From NCBI GenBank assembly GCA_001468925.1, contig LDIX01000006.1, positions 1-61,710 on the forward strand: DNA of 61,710 nucleotides, read 5' to 3'. Under the pieces are notes generated by a model. The model saw nothing but the letters and a program-made list of their open reading frames with translations, made no database searches and was not told where the DNA came from. Shown here piece after piece: positions 3,087 to 61,575 of the stretch. Position 1 is the first letter of the stretch. Each line of letters opens with the position of its first letter. The position numbers were made by a program, and so were the translations under genes. Source of the stretch: a candidate division TM6 bacterium UASB340 (GTDB lineage Bacteria > Babelota > Babeliae > Babelales > UASB340).

Positions 3087-3524
3087 TTACATCCTTAACA
3101 TTTCAGGATATTGTTTAAGATAATAGCATATGTTGTTTTTGCCCTGCTCATAATCAGCTCTTTCGGATGGACAATTTTGAGAAGAACAGTCGTAAGTTTT
3201 TATATAAATTGTTACCGTTTTTCCGTCCGGAATATTAATATCTTTGCTTAATGCAATATTATCACTTCTTCGGCTTAAGCTTCCTTTTCCTCTGGTTAAG
3301 TTTGAATCTTGAGCGGTAGCTTTTATTGTAAAGTTACTTGGCATATTATTAAATGTGTGGGCATCACCGTTGTTATTTAAAATACATTCGCCTTTTCCCG
3401 TATTTTGCTCAAATATGTCTATATCCCAAGCGGTATTTGTTTCATTTATAACTTTAATTGTTATTTCTGCATTACAATAACTATGAAAGATAGAAAATAA
3501 TATAATTAAATAGATATTCTTCAT
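3087..3524 (-). CDS. small secreted Cys-containing protein, unknown function
   Basis: Likely start is the ATG at 3524 (MKNIYLIILFSIFHSYCNA/E) with a GGGGA RBS upstream. The TTG at 3536 in the track is less likely. Signal-peptide-like N-terminus with several Cys in the C-terminal third. Confidence 0.6.
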   Translation of the reverse strand: MKNIYLIILFSIFHSYCNAEITIKVINETNTAWDIDIFEQNTGKGECILNNNGDAHTFNNMPSNFTIKATAQDSNLTRGKGSLSRRSDNIALSKDINIPDGKTVTIYIKTYDCSSQNCPSERADYEQGKNNICYYLKQYPEMLRM

Positions 3525-3611
3525 AACATCCCCCAAAAATCCCTAAAAACACTAAAATTACACTTAACTAAACATAATTTTAGATTAATTTATGTTTAAA
3601 ATTCAAGCTTT

Positions 3612-3932
3612 TTATTTAATCTCTAACTTATCGCCTATTTTGGATATGGTAAAAATTCTTGCTCCGGTTATTTTACTTTCAAATTTTACTTCTAGGGCAT
3701 CACTTTTTGCTGTAATTGTTAATGTTGCCGGGTTCATAAGTGTAGTTTCAAATCCGTTTAATCCTAAATTTTGAAAATTAAAATCACCAATTGTTCTTGG
3801 AATTCCATCAACTTCAACTTTTATAACAATCGGTGATTGTAAATTTGGATCTTTTTGTACTGTGATTGTGAATGAATAAATTTGGGCTAAACTTAAAAAA
3901 GTAAAAAAAATAGCTAAAAATAGCTTTTTCAT
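3612..3932 (-). CDS. small secreted beta-rich protein, unknown function
   Basis: MKKLFLAIFFTFLSLAQIYS/F signal-like N-terminus. Strong AAGGAGA RBS upstream of the ATG. Shares sequence landmarks with the neighbouring ORF at 3087-3524. Confidence 0.65.
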   Translation of the reverse strand: MKKLFLAIFFTFLSLAQIYSFTITVQKDPNLQSPIVIKVEVDGIPRTIGDFNFQNLGLNGFETTLMNPATLTITAKSDALEVKFESKITGARIFTISKIGDKLEIK

Positions 3933-4025
3933 TAATATTCTCCTTAAATTTTAAATTTTTATTTTTATTTTATATAAATCTAATTTGATATAAGTTAAAT
4001 TATAATAATCAATAGAATCAATATT

Positions 4026-4337
4026 TTGTTTATATATATAGTTTACTTTGGAATTTATATGTTTTTTTTAATAGCTAAATCAGTTTTTGTTGGGATTTTA
4101 TTTGGTGTCTTATACGCTTTTTTATTTTTTAATAAGCTTTATAAATTTATTTTTGGTTCAGTAGGTAAAAATATTATTAAATATAGTATAAATACAGCAT
4201 TAAATTTTATAGTTTTAATCTCTATTTTTGTTTTGCTTTACTTTGTATTTAAAATTAATTTAATAATTACAGTGCTTTCTTTTAATATTTCGTTTTGGGT
4301 TATAATTTTATATGAACTTAAAACTTATAAAAAATAG
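4026..4337 (+). CDS. small polytopic membrane protein, AtpI-like by position
   Basis: About 100 aa and almost entirely hydrophobic (3-4 TM). Sits immediately upstream of atpB, where atpI normally sits. Start is ambiguous (TTG at 4026 or ATG at 4059). Confidence 0.45.
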   Translation: MFIYIVYFGIYMFFLIAKSVFVGILFGVLYAFLFFNKLYKFIFGSVGKNIIKYSINTALNFIVLISIFVLLYFVFKINLIITVLSFNISFWVIILYELKTYKK

Positions 4338-59572: not shown

Positions 59573-59580
59573 ATCTAAAA

Positions 59581-60399
59581 TTAAATTCTTGTTAGTTTTA
59601 TATTATTTTTAATTAATAAATCTTTCATATCAAAAAATAACTTCCAGCCGTATTTTGTAAGTTTTCCATCAAATCTTGGTAATTTAACTTCATGCAAATT
59701 AAAAAGTTTTGCAGTTGTTATGATTCCCTTAAAGGTTCTTATGCCAGGTTTTGTAACTGTAAGTTTTTTAATATTAAGTGTTCCAAAGCTTTTTATAATT
59801 TCTTGACGTAATTCAAATTCAACAAATTTTTCAACAGACTGTTTTTCAGCAAATAGTCCATTATCGTTAATTTTTATTTGATTGTTTTTATTTTTTTTAA
59901 TCAAAAGCTTGTTTGTAACAATAATCTGATTAGGTGAAAAATAGAATGTTTTAAACTTTAAAAATGCTGTGAATGATAATAAAAGAACTATGTACATAAA
60001 AAATTTTGATTTTTTTGAATATTTTTTATTACTTAAAATAAAAAAAGTTATTAATGGTATTAATAACAAAATAAAAATATTTATTTTGCCAAAACCCATT
60101 AACCAGTTCTTTTGTCCTATACTCATAATTTTTTTCCAAAAATTTGTCGAAATATCTAAAAAATATATCAAATAATTATTGGGAATATTTATTAATTCAG
60201 TGAAAAATACAAGAGAGCTTAGTGTTAAAAAAATAGATAAAAATGGTACGAAAATTAGATTGCCTATAAAGCTCATAATAGATATTGATAATCCCCAATG
60301 AATTAATATCGGCAAAGAGATAAGTGTAATAATAAGTTGTGTTTCAAAAAATATAATTAAATAGTTAAAAATTTTTTGAAAAATAGCTTTTAAGTTCAA
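59581..60399 (-). CDS. ComEC/Rec2-like membrane protein fragment (possible gene remnant)
   Basis: 272 aa with a TTG start. The N-terminal ETQLIITLISLPILIHWGLSISIMSFIGNLIFVPFLS resembles the middle of the ComEC competence domain. There is no N-terminal half and no metallo-beta-lactamase domain. Confidence 0.45.
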   Translation of the reverse strand: MNLKAIFQKIFNYLIIFFETQLIITLISLPILIHWGLSISIMSFIGNLIFVPFLSIFLTLSSLVFFTELINIPNNYLIYFLDISTNFWKKIMSIGQKNWLMGFGKINIFILLLIPLITFFILSNKKYSKKSKFFMYIVLLLSFTAFLKFKTFYFSPNQIIVTNKLLIKKNKNNQIKINDNGLFAEKQSVEKFVEFELRQEIIKSFGTLNIKKLTVTKPGIRTFKGIITTAKLFNLHEVKLPRFDGKLTKYGWKLFFDMKDLLIKNNIKLTRI

Positions 60400-60417
60400 T
60401 GTTATATATTCGTAAAT

Positions 60418-61575
60418 TTATTCAAGTTTTTTAATTACAATTTTTTCCAGATTACTAAGATTATTGGCATCTTTTTTTTGCTTTATTATATTGGGCAAAA
60501 TTTTATTTAAATAATCAAATGTATTATCTGTTGAAATATTGTAATTATTATTTTTTATATGCGCAAGAATATCTTTTTGTACCCAATTTGTAATGATATT
60601 TAAGTAACCTATTAATTGAAAAGTTTTGTGACCATTTGTTTTTAGTTTTTCATCCAAATACTTTTTAATAACAATATTTTTTATAAATTGCTGTATTATG
60701 TGCTCTTCAATTATTTCATTTGCTAAAACTTCGTATTTTTCAGTTTTTGCTGTATTTATATAATTGTCTTTAAAACTATTAAATTCTGTGCATGTTGGGT
60801 TTGGTAATCTTTTTTCGACATTTAACGCAGAAAGAATATATTTTTTTATTTTATTATTTTTATTTTCTTTAAAATATTTTGACAGATTATTACACATACC
60901 AAAATCCAAAAATGCCAGTTTATAGATTTCTGCATTTGTTTTTTCTCGTACCATGCAAATTTCCATATCCAAACCGTCCAATTGTAATTTATAGTGTAAT
61001 ATTGCCATAAATGTACCAAGGTCACTGAATAATTGCTCTAAATTAGTTTTATTATTGGTTATTTTTGAATACCTATTAATAATTTCATTTATTTGTTTAA
61101 CACCTAAACTGTGTCCGGTTATTATTTCATTTTCATATCTATCTACAGAATCAAGATTTTCTTCTCCAAATTTTAGTTGAGTTATTAAATTTTTATTAGT
61201 TTCTTCTTTGATTGGATATAATCTTGGAATTTCCATAGCACAAACGTCTGCACTATTTGATATTAATTTACTTGGATTTAAAACAAGAATTCTTTCAAAA
61301 AGAGTTTTGTCATATTTTTCTATTTGATTATAAATATTTTTTTGTATTTCAAATTCTTTTTTTATTTTATCGCATTGACTAATATTTTCACCACCTTTTA
61401 TGGCTATATTTTCACTACTACTGGATCCCCAAATTTCACCGGTTCCACCTTTTCCCAAAAGTTGATCAAATGAAATGGAATAATTTTCCTGTAATAGATC
61501 CTGAATTTTTTTTGCGTTTGAAATATTAAATATAAAAAATATAAAAATATAAAATTTTAAATTTATTATTTTCAT
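60418..61575 (-). CDS. signal-peptide-bearing atypical protein-kinase-like protein (K5)
   Basis: MKIINLKFYIFIFFIFNISNA/K. G-loop LGKGGTGEIWG, then NIAIK and KKEFEIQ. The DFG motif is intact (LAFLDFGMC). The catalytic loop is non-canonical (HYKLQLDGLDMEI) and there is no APE motif. AAGGAGAA RBS. Confidence 0.5.
   Translation of the reverse strand: MKIINLKFYIFIFFIFNISNAKKIQDLLQENYSISFDQLLGKGGTGEIWGSSSSENIAIKGGENISQCDKIKKEFEIQKNIYNQIEKYDKTLFERILVLNPSKLISNSADVCAMEIPRLYPIKEETNKNLITQLKFGEENLDSVDRYENEIITGHSLGVKQINEIINRYSKITNNKTNLEQLFSDLGTFMAILHYKLQLDGLDMEICMVREKTNAEIYKLAFLDFGMCNNLSKYFKENKNNKIKKYILSALNVEKRLPNPTCTEFNSFKDNYINTAKTEKYEVLANEIIEEHIIQQFIKNIVIKKYLDEKLKTNGHKTFQLIGYLNIITNWVQKDILAHIKNNNYNISTDNTFDYLNKILPNIIKQKKDANNLSNLEKIVIKKLE

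Follow-up and report, generated by a model that had tools for sequence, protein, structure and literature searches.

Eukaryote-like kinase effectors of intracellular bacteria include the Legionella LegK family, Yersinia YpkA/YopO, Shigella OspG, Salmonella SteC and Coxiella CstK, which are delivered by type III or type IV secretion systems (T3SS or T4SS) and lack a Sec signal peptide. These proteins have a Hanks/ePK fold and eukaryotic affinities, and phosphorylation of host proteins has been shown or proposed for them. In Legionella pneumophila, substrates of the type II secretion system (T2SS) such as ProA, ChiA and NttA are needed in amoebae, and some cross to the host's side of the vacuolar membrane; the known ones are degradative enzymes and novel proteins, with no protein kinases among them. 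Apicomplexan rhoptry (ROP) kinases and other secretory-pathway kinases combine a signal peptide with a kinase domain, and the ROP kinases are expanded, fast-evolving proteins that the intracellular parasite secretes or injects into its host. Members of the phylum Dependentiae (TM6) are obligate intracellular parasites of protists, in which, to our knowledge, no T3SS or T4SS has been reported. In Babela massiliensis (2015) the T2SS was the only secretion system found, and export of host-interaction proteins with signal peptides by Sec and the T2SS was proposed (PMC4378268); in Chromulinavorax destructans (2019), 44% of CDS carried signal sequences, which were enriched in ORFans (PMC6561590). 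These two papers describe many signal-peptide proteins of obscure function with proposed host action, and stress ankyrin-repeat proteins, Ulp1-like peptidases, proteases and nucleases, leaving protein kinases unmentioned. A study of TM6 genomes reports T2SS components as part of their core, with gspD present in two copies (PMC4776705).

Here, we analysed a 61,710-nt stretch of DNA (the window) from the same phylum. The source genome is a small, AT-rich Candidatus Dependentiae (TM6) genome: relatives include candidate division TM6 GW2011_GWF2_28_16, and a kinase ortholog is labelled 'Candidatus Dependentiae bacterium' in the database. This sequence occurs only in metagenomic DNA runs (groundwater and sediment metagenomes). 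The window contains skp, lpxD, lptC, mlaD and a surA-like gene, which imply an outer membrane and a periplasm; it encodes no ankyrin protein. An earlier note had listed 13 ORFs with signal-like peptides, and every one is present where it was placed (Table 1). The kinases among them share their fold, eukaryotic affinities and proposed host-protein phosphorylation with the LegK-type effectors, but carry a classic N-terminal Sec signal directly before the kinase domain. The likeness to ROP kinases, which use a eukaryotic secretory pathway, is one of strategy only, with no homology implied.

Table 1. Candidate exported proteins and export-related genes in the window
Feature	Position	Strand	Evidence
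145-aa signal-peptide protein	3087..3524	-	cleavage predicted between MKNIYLIILFSIFHSYCNA and E; GGGGGA Shine-Dalgarno-like motif before ATG
106-aa signal-peptide protein	3612..3932	-	cleavage predicted between ...FLSLA and Q; AGGAG before ATG
356-aa signal-peptide protein, divergent conserved gspF neighbour	6147..7217	-	site between ...NICA and DNF
T2SS operon, gspF-gspG and GspH/I/J/K-like pseudopilins	7325..11861	+	Pfam, NCBIfam
Signal peptide and eukaryote-type Ser/Thr kinase, 371 aa	13883..14998	+	Pkinase 73.6 bits; signal-peptide rule passed
Signal peptide and eukaryote-type Ser/Thr kinase, 373 aa	15018..16139	+	Pkinase 95.4 bits; cleavage predicted between ...NSCIA and N
119-aa signal-peptide protein without known family	24321..24680	+	cleavage predicted between ...NAYS and M; Shine-Dalgarno-like motif
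171-aa signal-peptide protein, accessory	32652..33167	+	signal-peptide rule passed; Shine-Dalgarno-like motif
Signal peptide and divergent EEP (endonuclease/exonuclease/phosphatase) enzyme, accessory	33219..34466	+	HMMER relatives, model fold
Signal peptide and TKL-like Ser/Thr kinase, 352 aa	34546..35604	-	Pkinase 100.7 bits, PK_Tyr_Ser-Thr 93.4 bits
606-aa protein, signal peptide or signal anchor	43434..45254	+	hydrophobic N-terminus
Signal peptidase II (LspA), general export pathway part	47761..48270	+	Pfam Peptidase_A8 1.2e-28
Signal peptide and NagZ (GH3)/NamZ exo-muramidase fusion, 885 aa	55804..58461	+	Pfam
Signal peptide and eukaryote-type kinase, 367 aa	58469..59572	+	Pkinase 73.4 bits
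Signal peptide and atypical kinase-like-fold protein	60418..61575	-	homologs, invariant residues, model

N-terminal signals of the candidates

Signal peptides were called with home-made rules (n, h and c regions plus a -3/-1 site; neither SignalP nor Phobius), which 11 of the 13 candidates passed. The sole cause of failure for 6147-7217 was the range searched: a clear site is seen by eye, and its homologs in two related genomes (L088 and L089) passed. The N-terminus of 43434-45254 is hydrophobic without a good -3/-1 site, and its 85%-identical ortholog passed. Among kinases at related loci, 10 of the 12 examined passed; one that failed, in L084, had been read from an internal ATG, and the other, a 446-aa kinase in L004, has a comparably hydrophobic N-terminus. 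In the family of 60418-61575 the N-terminal hydrophobic segment is variable and the conserved mature part starts directly after a small-residue site. Cleavage of the signal peptides is predicted from these sequence features.

These signals might instead be artefacts, either chance F/I/L/K-rich translations of AT-rich upstream DNA or uncleaved membrane anchors. In five candidates (13883, 24321, 32652, 33219 and 58469) a Met coincides with the predicted cleavage site or lies close to it, the gene caller began a relative's ortholog of 58469-59572 at this internal Met, 43434-45254 lacks the -3/-1 site, and 6.3% of random peptides with the window's base composition passed the rule. However, only 1 of ~25 cytoplasmic housekeeping proteins and 0 of 20 non-genic ORFs did so, and a Shine-Dalgarno-like GGAG/GGGG motif lies 5-10 nt 5' of the first ATG in 9 of the 13 candidates, including 24321, 32652 and 33219. 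Homologs down to 41-57% identity that lack the internal Met keep hydrophobic N-termini, and the upstream ATG and hydrophobic segment of 58469-59572 are kept intact and in frame in L084. We consider an artefact very improbable, and the Sec-type signals reported earlier for all 13 ORFs are convincing in at least 12 on the basis of the rule, its controls and the homologs.

Families and folds of the candidates

Five candidates had been described as kinases or kinase-like proteins. Four exceed the Pfam Pkinase gathering score (73-101 bits), and the fifth, 60418-61575, has an atypical kinase-like fold. The four Pfam kinases all keep the aspartates of HRD and DFG, the catalytic asparagine and the alpha-C glutamate without variation; their motifs include YRDLKFEN, DFT and CW...RP (13883-14998), HRDIKPEN and DFS (15018-16139) and LRDLKPDN, DLE and CW..DRP (58469-59572). 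The solved structures that the kinases match best are eukaryotic throughout, and the nearest named database matches from outside Dependentiae are eukaryotic as well (Acrasis, Blastocystis, Cichorium); several unnamed matches have further Pfam hits, to SH2, PH, cyclin, PP2C, EF-hand or ankyrin. The earlier description 'TKL-like' holds only for 34546-35604, with Dictyostelium Roco4 as its best solved-structure match (1.9e-15); 15018-16139 matches TTK, IKK and TBK1 best. Signal-peptide kinases of eukaryotic type recur in all but one of the related lineages readable at these positions: L004 has them in tandem at the mlaD/ybeY position that 13883-14998 occupies, and the site of 58469-59572 holds them in L086 (two), L090 and L091. 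Identity falls to 23-41% both between paralogs and between positional homologs.

The atypical protein 60418-61575 has nine homologs (48-96% identity); a Dependentiae or TM6 label is attached to four, and a label of another phylum to none. The family has so far been seen only in Dependentiae. GxGGxG, K60, E74, D200/D203 and DFG224-226 are invariant. The best 50 PDB fold matches of its structure model (pLDDT 84.7) by E-value are kinase-fold proteins, some of which, like APH(2'') and PI5P4K, are small-molecule kinases.

The EEP enzyme and glycosidase fusion reported earlier were both recovered. Among 5.8 billion clustered proteins, 33219-34466 matched nothing related except itself. An exhaustive HMMER search found six distant relatives, the nearest of which (35% identity) lies above the Pfam Exo_endo_phos cut-off, and E117, H228, D263, N265, D354 and S404-D405-H406 are invariant across them. 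The model core matches nocturnin, CNOT6L and TDP2, with E down to 3e-10. The fusion 55804-58461 contains Glyco_hydro_3 (4.4e-40), NamZ_N (2.1e-50) and NamZ_C (3e-35), and is syntenic, with its signal peptide kept, in L084, L086, L090 and L091. In Bacillus subtilis and Tannerella the exo-lytic enzymes NagZ and NamZ, which share these Pfam families, both carry export signals; here, in contrast, they are fused in one protein of a diderm parasite. A periplasmic enzyme of peptidoglycan turnover is the more likely identity of this fusion, rather than an effector. The 13 candidates are thus a mixed set and not the single effector arsenal proposed in the earlier note.

Pfam searches gave no match for 3087-3524 or 3612-3932, nor did Pfam and PDB searches for 43434-45254. 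For 6147-7217 no family was found, with faint hints only of HipA_C and SelO.

Position, composition and selection

Clustering in accessory, AT-rich islets had been suggested. In gene order, 8 clusters of candidates were counted where 10.2 would be expected, a difference that is not significant (P = 0.097). The GC content of the candidates is indeed lower (0.252 vs 0.276, p = 0.018), but GC3 is alike (0.168 vs 0.171, p = 0.18); the gap disappears at third codon positions and therefore reflects amino-acid content, not foreign DNA. Positional comparison with related Dependentiae genomes covered 11 candidates (all except 3087-3524 and 3612-3932), and nine occupy the same positions: the kinases, 6147-7217, 24321-24680, 43434-45254, the NagZ-NamZ fusion and 60418-61575. 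The counterpart of 6147-7217 adjoins gspF in both L088 (78% identity), where the atp genes lie beside it too, and L089 (41%); three assemblies carry an 86% ortholog of 34546-35604 between nrdD and uvrB, as here; and in the near relative L001 an 88%-identical ortholog of 24321-24680 lies at the same comM/acpS site and the ortholog of 43434-45254 adjoins pheT. L001 lacks just 32652-33167 and 33219-34466, the kinase there following directly on nrdD, so accessory status is limited to these two genes. Secreted proteins of Babela, in contrast, were described as lying in genome islands (PMC4378268).

The conserved candidates are under purifying yet relaxed selection. In six of them dN/dS was 0.11-0.48 (0.11 in 60418-61575, 0.29 in 24321-24680, 0.37 in 34546-35604 and 0.48 in 43434-45254), with a median of 0.29 compared with 0.09 in 19 housekeeping genes (p = 0.002), i.e. 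~3 times faster evolution.

Alternatively, all of the exported proteins, the kinases too, might remain periplasmic or surface-bound and serve the parasite's own envelope, with no host manipulation; host ATP diffusing into the periplasm could feed kinases acting on envelope proteins or salvaged cell-wall sugars. The order NagZ-NamZ/kinase/ComEC-like membrane protein/atypical kinase is kept in five lineages, 6147-7217 invariably adjoins gspF, NagZ-NamZ belongs by family to the envelope enzymes, and 60418-61575 evolves slowly and has small-molecule kinases among its fold matches. Strong positional conservation suits envelope functions and effectors equally well, and periplasmic export is unusual for a kinase. 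However, the kept order spans unrelated housekeeping genes (clpB...typA) and alone implies no shared function. In the four Pfam kinases the C-lobe is that of a protein kinase and includes the CW...RP motif of TK/TKL type, the closest solved structures are eukaryotic signalling kinases, and their low mutual identity and raised dN/dS are more typical of host-facing proteins. We judge a purely envelope role rather unlikely.

Proposed export route and role

The T2SS genes noted previously were confirmed: gspF, gspG and four pseudopilin-like genes (Pfam T2SSF 3.4e-52, T2SSG 2.5e-18), in an order identical to that in L089. Best matches were GspF for 7325-8554, GspH for 8955-9566, ComGE for 9570-9962, ComGF for 9970-10800 (GspJ weak only) and GspK for 10800-11861; the GspE ATPase and GspD secretin are absent from the window. 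The T2SS is the sole secretion system reported for Dependentiae.

After Sec export, the proteins might leave independently of the T2SS, by outer-membrane vesicles or break-up of the replication body, with the T2SS genes serving a pilus-like or other function. In the food vacuole, C. destructans was observed to shed such vesicles by budding (PMC6561590), one of the two TM6 gspD copies possibly belongs to a type IV pilus (PMC4776705), and GspF scores nearly as well on PilC models (297 bits) as on its own (320 bits). Against this, GspG scores 97 bits on the NCBIfam equivalog for the T2SS major pseudopilin (cut-off 88.85), the layout is the classic gspF-G-H-I-J-K, and no pili were observed in Babela. 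We regard such an exit as improbable. Because no recognisable signal in their sequence marks T2SS substrates, T2SS dependence is unreadable from sequence; for the candidates we infer it, whereas for the L. pneumophila substrates, which take the same two steps of Sec and then T2SS, it is experimental.

We favour, with a probability of about 0.55, a reading in which the candidates are mostly Sec-exported, released by the T2SS and host-acting, with the NagZ-NamZ fusion in envelope housekeeping and two accessory genes. The 13 ORFs are real genes; their products would be directed to Sec by N-terminal signal peptides that are then cleaved off, and would fall into three groups. The first, envelope housekeeping, would be the NagZ-NamZ fusion, which probably trims periplasmic peptidoglycan. 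The second would comprise lineage-specific, conserved, fast-evolving exported proteins: four minimal proteins of signal peptide plus eukaryote-type kinase domain, one of atypical kinase fold and several without a family. The 171-aa protein and the divergent EEP phosphoesterase would form the third, truly accessory group. For the second and third groups the likeliest route would be Sec to the periplasm, then the T2SS across the outer membrane. In the host, the kinases may phosphorylate host proteins with host ATP as donor, and the EEP enzyme may hydrolyse a host phosphoester.

The strategy had been thought undescribed, but Sec/T2SS export of host-interaction proteins with signal peptides was already proposed for Dependentiae (PMC4378268). 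Kinase cargo with signal peptides seems to be a new detail, undescribed in the literature searched. Together, the candidates, whose genes are mostly conserved and not mobile, fit the "signal peptide plus type II secretion" model published for this phylum.

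Signal peptides and export machinery

The 13 candidates, ORFs named here by their window coordinates, had been proposed in an earlier note to carry Sec-type signals. We scored their N-termini with a home-made rule that looks for a positive n-region, an uncharged hydrophobic core, small residues at -3/-1 and a site at residues 14–35, taking as a Sec-type (SPase I) signal a positive n-region, an h-region of ∼7–15 residues, small residues at -3 and -1 and a site within ∼35 residues. Eleven of the 13 pass by rule, and homologues support the other two. The 6147-7217 protein, also convincing by eye, fails only because its site (between …NICA and DNF) falls outside the search window, and its 78% and 41% identical homologues pass; 43434-45254 has no good cleavage site by rule, and its 85% identical orthologue passes. 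No twin-arginine motif was seen among the candidates' N-termini. Both periplasmic controls pass the rule, namely Skp and a SurA-like lipoprotein whose lipobox reads LFVGC. Of ∼25 cytoplasmic housekeeping proteins only prs passes, and of 20 non-genic ORFs none; random peptides at the base composition of the window pass in 6.3% of cases.

Because a Met lies on the predicted cleavage site or close to it in five candidates, we checked whether the hydrophobic N-termini come from over-extended ORFs. A GGAG/GGGG motif lies 5–10 nt before the first ATG in nine of the 13, including three of these five. For 58469-59572, the upstream ATG and frame are intact in a relative, which differs there by two synonymous and four conservative substitutions but by no indel. 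Among the ten members of the 60418-61575 family, the first 20 residues differ freely yet stay hydrophobic, and strong conservation starts directly past the small-residue site, the pattern that would be expected of a cleaved signal peptide. Together with the rule controls, these features led us to reject signal peptides as artefacts of AT-rich DNA, and we infer that the candidates are cleaved. Artefactual or uncleaved N-termini are very improbable, and plausible mainly for 43434-45254.

The type II secretion system (T2SS) genes reported earlier are present, encoding GspF, GspG and four prepilin-type proteins (Pfam T2SSF, T2SSG). GspG exceeds its NCBIfam equivalog cut-off; GspF, GspH and GspK are best matches below cut-off, and for GspJ there is a weak secondary hit only. 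Of the four prepilin-type proteins, three correspond to GspH, GspJ (a weak match) and GspK and follow the classic order, and the T2SS gene order is the same in a distant Dependentiae contig (L089). Neither the secretin GspD nor the ATPase GspE is encoded within the 61.7-kb window. Published comparison of seven TM6 genomes found T2SS components, the secretin and ATPase reportedly among them, in all or nearly all, with two gspD copies per genome (Yeoh et al., PMC4776705). Since the window also encodes skp, a surA-like gene, lpxD, lptC and mlaD, its gene content indicates a true outer membrane, so that a second export step beyond Sec would be needed. We know of no sequence signature that marks T2SS substrates.

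Next to these genes, 6147-7217 is divergently transcribed from gspF, both in the window and in L089, a higher-GC contig (41% identity). It has only faint hints to HipA_C (E = 0.06) and SelO (E = 0.74), both kinase-fold, and may be either an accessory factor of the T2SS or one of its dedicated substrates.

Eukaryote-type kinases and the other candidate products

Four candidates (13883-14998, 15018-16139, 34546-35604 and 58469-59572) match Pfam Pkinase (PF00069) at 73.4–100.7 bits, against a gathering cut-off of 31.7. All four are minimal, consisting of a signal peptide, 20–60 residues and a kinase domain, and they are very divergent paralogues (23–36% identity). Since the catalytic residues are invariant in our kinase alignment, namely the HRD Arg/Asp (R182, D183), the catalytic Lys/Asn (K185, N188), the DFG Asp (D205) and the alpha-C Glu (E111), these proteins are probably active. 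Their DFG reads DFS, DFT or DLE. The CW...RP motif of subdomain XI is found in three of the four and is degenerate (CC...DRP) in 15018-16139. A Kdo/WaaP lipid-kinase identity for 34546-35604 was rejected (29.5 bits versus 100.7 for Pkinase); an 86% identical orthologue in three NCBI assemblies is named 'protein kinase [Candidatus Dependentiae bacterium]'.

The best solved structures for 34546-35604 are Dictyostelium Roco4 (1.9e-15), then EphB1, RIPK3, ABL1 and BRAF, and for 15018-16139 TTK, IKK and TBK1; no bacterial kinase is among the matches listed for either protein. The best named database hits outside Dependentiae come from eukaryotes; among the hits without a name, several have additional Pfam matches to SH2, PH, cyclin, PP2C, EF-hand or ankyrin. 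The eukaryotic signatures ascribed to these kinases are therefore supported, and 'eukaryote-type' describes them. By best structural matches, the narrower label 'TKL-like' may suit 34546-35604 only (Roco4, RIPK3 and BRAF, also EphB1/ABL). Searching genome contigs with a profile of the kinase alignment returned mostly generic Hanks kinases of unrelated phyla and one useful Dependentiae locus, in MAG Bin_169 (L004), so our survey of kinases across Dependentiae rests on a handful of loci.

The fifth protein, 60418-61575, had been called kinase-like. It has no Pfam family (a lenient Pfam scan gives only ABC1 at E = 0.05) and no match in a PDB sequence search. Its nine homologues (48–96% identity) comprise four labelled Dependentiae or TM6, the rest being unlabelled, and all ten sequences keep the Gly-rich loop (GxGGxG), beta-3 Lys (K60), alpha-C Glu (E74), catalytic Asp (D200/D203) and DFG. 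The AlphaFold model (pLDDT 84.7, pTM 0.85) was compared with the PDB by Foldseek. All 50 listed matches, ranked by E-value, are kinase-fold, including PI5P4K, MK2, CLK1, APH(2''), PRPK and RIO1; their probability is mostly 0.75–1.0 and they are weak (E ∼6e-3, TM 0.21–0.51). From the model and the invariant residues, we accept a predicted atypical kinase-fold enzyme that may act on a protein or on a small molecule.

Assignment of 33219-34466 as an EEP enzyme was confirmed indirectly. Searched directly against Pfam it reaches only E = 0.11, and no word-sharing relative was found among 5.8 billion clusters; exhaustive HMMER recovered six distant relatives, the nearest of which (35% identity) matches PF03372 (Exo_endo_phos) at 26.8 against a cut-off of 24.5. 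The catalytic positions of the alignment (Glu, His, Asp-x-Asn, Asp and Ser-Asp-His) are all invariant. Its structural model, weak overall (pLDDT 61) with a core of 70–90, has 130 PDB fold matches at E ≤ 0.001, nocturnin first (3.4e-10), and the core also matches CNOT6L, TDP2 and Bacteroides EEP proteins. The glycosidase fusion 55804-58461 is a GH3 NagZ joined to NamZ_N/NamZ_C by Pfam. As both parts are exo-acting peptidoglycan enzymes, it is most simply an enzyme of periplasmic cell-wall turnover rather than an effector, and it probably stays in the periplasm.

No family was detected for the six other candidates (3087-3524, 3612-3932, 6147-7217, 24321-24680, 32652-33167 and 43434-45254) in Pfam searches, the lenient scans giving faint hints only. 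PDB sequence searches gave no match for 33219-34466, 43434-45254 or 6147-7217, and no homologue of known function was found for 3087-3524, 3612-3932, 24321-24680, 32652-33167 or 43434-45254.

Conservation and evolution of the candidates

The candidates had been proposed to form accessory, AT-rich islets. Related loci recovered at three evolutionary distances argue otherwise: nine of the 11 candidates with recoverable loci (all except 3087-3524 and 3612-3932) are syntenic in relatives and thus vertically inherited. In the near relative GCA_018896115.1, whose housekeeping proteins are 96–99% identical, 24321-24680, 34546-35604, 43434-45254, 55804-58461, 58469-59572 and 60418-61575 are all at the same positions; only 32652-33167 and 33219-34466 are absent, the kinase following nrdD directly. 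The order gpsA, NagZ-NamZ, kinase(s), ComEC-like, atypical kinase and holB is kept in two more distant relatives (L086 and L090; 48–57% identity in the 60418-61575 family), and from NagZ-NamZ through holB in a third (L091). All three have one or two signal-peptide kinases at the same site past NagZ-NamZ. MAG Bin_169 has a tandem pair of kinases between mlaD and ybeY, one passing the signal-peptide rule and the other with a comparable hydrophobic N-terminus. The most distant contig, L089, has no kinases at this site. In another relative's gspF locus (L088), 6147-7217 (78% identity) adjoins atp genes and a gspF fragment.

Kinase copy number varies at these fixed sites: there are two copies past NagZ-NamZ in L086 versus one in the window, and past mlaD two in the window, two in Bin_169 and none in L089. 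In one of the L086 copies, HRD is replaced by HCD.

Candidates are not significantly clustered along the gene order (8 clusters versus 10.2 expected, P = 0.097). Their proposed AT-richness holds for overall GC (0.252 versus 0.276, p = 0.018) but not for GC3 (0.168 versus 0.171, p = 0.18), and on the equal GC3 we rejected islets of foreign DNA. The gap reflects amino-acid usage, FYMINK residues being more frequent and GARP residues less so, and points to weaker protein-level constraint and not to foreign origin. Against the near relative, dN/dS is 0.11–0.48 (median 0.29) for six candidates and 0.03–0.36 (median 0.09) for 19 other genes (p = 0.002). The candidates are real, functional genes under selection that evolve ∼3 times faster than housekeeping genes. 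In practice, they should be treated as conserved, vertically inherited, fast-evolving genes and not as mobile islands, and positional orthologues are therefore the right basis for comparative analyses.

The window (61.7 kb, 21–34% GC) has ∼56 genes, none of them for a tRNA, and the housekeeping landmarks named earlier match (ppsA, atpB/atpE, mlaD, ybeY, nrdDG, uvrB, a TLC-type transporter, pheT, lspA, clpB, uppS and gpsA). Near-identical sequence was found in groundwater and sediment metagenomes only; candidate division TM6 GW2011_GWF2_28_16 is among the other relatives. Together with the named kinase orthologue, this places the window in a Dependentiae (TM6) bacterium. Several neighbouring genes are unusual. 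The c subunit of the F-type ATP synthase joins four 80-aa hairpin repeats into one 320-aa protein that has 8 membrane segments, the helix-2 glutamate being kept in every repeat within an IE[SAT] motif; the L088 gene (77% identity, equal length) is also fused and adjoins atpB. A 272-aa membrane protein resembling a ComEC fragment (Pfam Competence, 4e-05) is kept between kinase and atypical kinase in L084, L086, L090 and L091, has a dN/dS of 0.20 and is short but functional rather than a pseudogene. The longest pth and prs ORFs overlap by 44 nt and both start upstream of their Pfam domain start; the Pept_tRNA_hydro match of pth begins at residue 27 (MDFNIKNIKVIIGLGNPG...), and its true start is probably downstream of the longest-ORF start. 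Real differences in gene content separate the window from the near relative, which has a 206-aa signal-peptide protein, a ParD/ParE pair and signal peptidase I in place of an AAA_14/DUF4143 ATPase, and lacks the TLC-type transporter at the corresponding site. A few genes past the right end of the window, relatives encode a very large signal-peptide protein (1679–1721 aa) with no Pfam domain.

Coordinates of features in the window and in related loci (L001, near relative GCA_018896115.1; L004, MAG Bin_169; L089, distant Dependentiae contig; L084, L086 and L092, relatives' loci matching or near the right end of the window)
Feature	Sequence	Coordinates	Strand
Fused ATP synthase c subunit	window	5180-6142	+
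Candidate beside gspF	window	6147-7217	-
T2SS genes	window	7325-11861	
prs	window	28467-29429	+
pth	window	29386-29976	+
Gene-content difference	window	37760-39019	
Gene-content difference, TLC-type transporter	window	41651-43003	
ComEC-like protein	window	59581-60399	-
Gene-content difference	L001	5071-7811	
Kinase copy-number site	L004	3467-6116	
Kinase copy-number site	L086	12049-14515	
Kinase copy-number site	L089	2300-3300	
Homologue of 6147-7217	L089	9848-11011	
Very large signal-peptide protein	L084	1-4112	
Very large signal-peptide protein	L086	1-1367	
Very large signal-peptide protein	L092	1-1509	

Possible routes and roles of the putatively exported kinases

Dependentiae (TM6) are obligate intracellular parasites of protists, widespread and seldom cultured. 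The signal peptides would direct the candidates through Sec, and for fast-evolving lineage-specific proteins T2SS release would be the simplest route, following published work on the phylum. Parasite–host interaction proteins were predicted as T2SS exports in Babela massiliensis (PMC4378268), and in Chromulinavorax destructans 44% of the CDS have signal sequences, with enrichment among ORFans (Deeg et al., PMC6561590). The window-scale strategy, put forward earlier as undescribed, is already the published model for Dependentiae, with the exception of the kinase cargo. Outer-membrane vesicles have been observed in C. destructans (Deeg et al., PMC6561590), and release of the candidates by vesicles or lysis instead of the T2SS is improbable.

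The host cytosol would supply the ATP that a protein kinase needs, and this location would fit the eukaryotic affinities of the kinases. The sequence analysis shows real genes, their signals, folds, catalytic residues, conservation and selection; T2SS dependence, the location in the host and the substrates we infer. An ATP parasite in host cytoplasm may also have periplasmic ATP, and an envelope role would suit 60418-61575, given its conserved position and low dN/dS; a periplasmic or surface function is nevertheless unlikely, if less so than release by vesicles or lysis. A bolder reading, to which we give a probability of roughly 0.35, is that a Dependentiae clade domesticated eukaryote-derived kinases as Sec-signal effectors that are released by the T2SS and phosphorylate proteins of the protist host in its cytoplasm. 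Such proteins would be the first kinase effectors known to use Sec/T2SS and not T3SS/T4SS, and would combine fixed chromosomal positions with rapid divergence (23–41% identity) and copy-number changes between lineages.

The well-studied bacterial kinase effectors LegK, YpkA, OspG, SteC and CstK are, as far as we know, delivered by T3SS/T4SS and lack Sec signals, in contrast to the predicted Sec signals of the window kinases. To our knowledge, no protein kinase is among the characterised T2SS substrates. We found no report of signal-peptide kinase cargo in Dependentiae in the searchable literature, and 'kinase' in the Dependentiae genome papers (PMC4378268, PMC4776705 and PMC6561590) refers to metabolic enzymes only, if at all. 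The candidates are of moderate interest as a concrete effector set; proof of their delivery into the host would make that interest clear. If the kinases reach the host, they would extend the T2SS cargo range to signalling enzymes, provide concrete, assayable host-manipulation candidates for Dependentiae, and represent eukaryote-like kinases long retained in a reduced bacterial genome.
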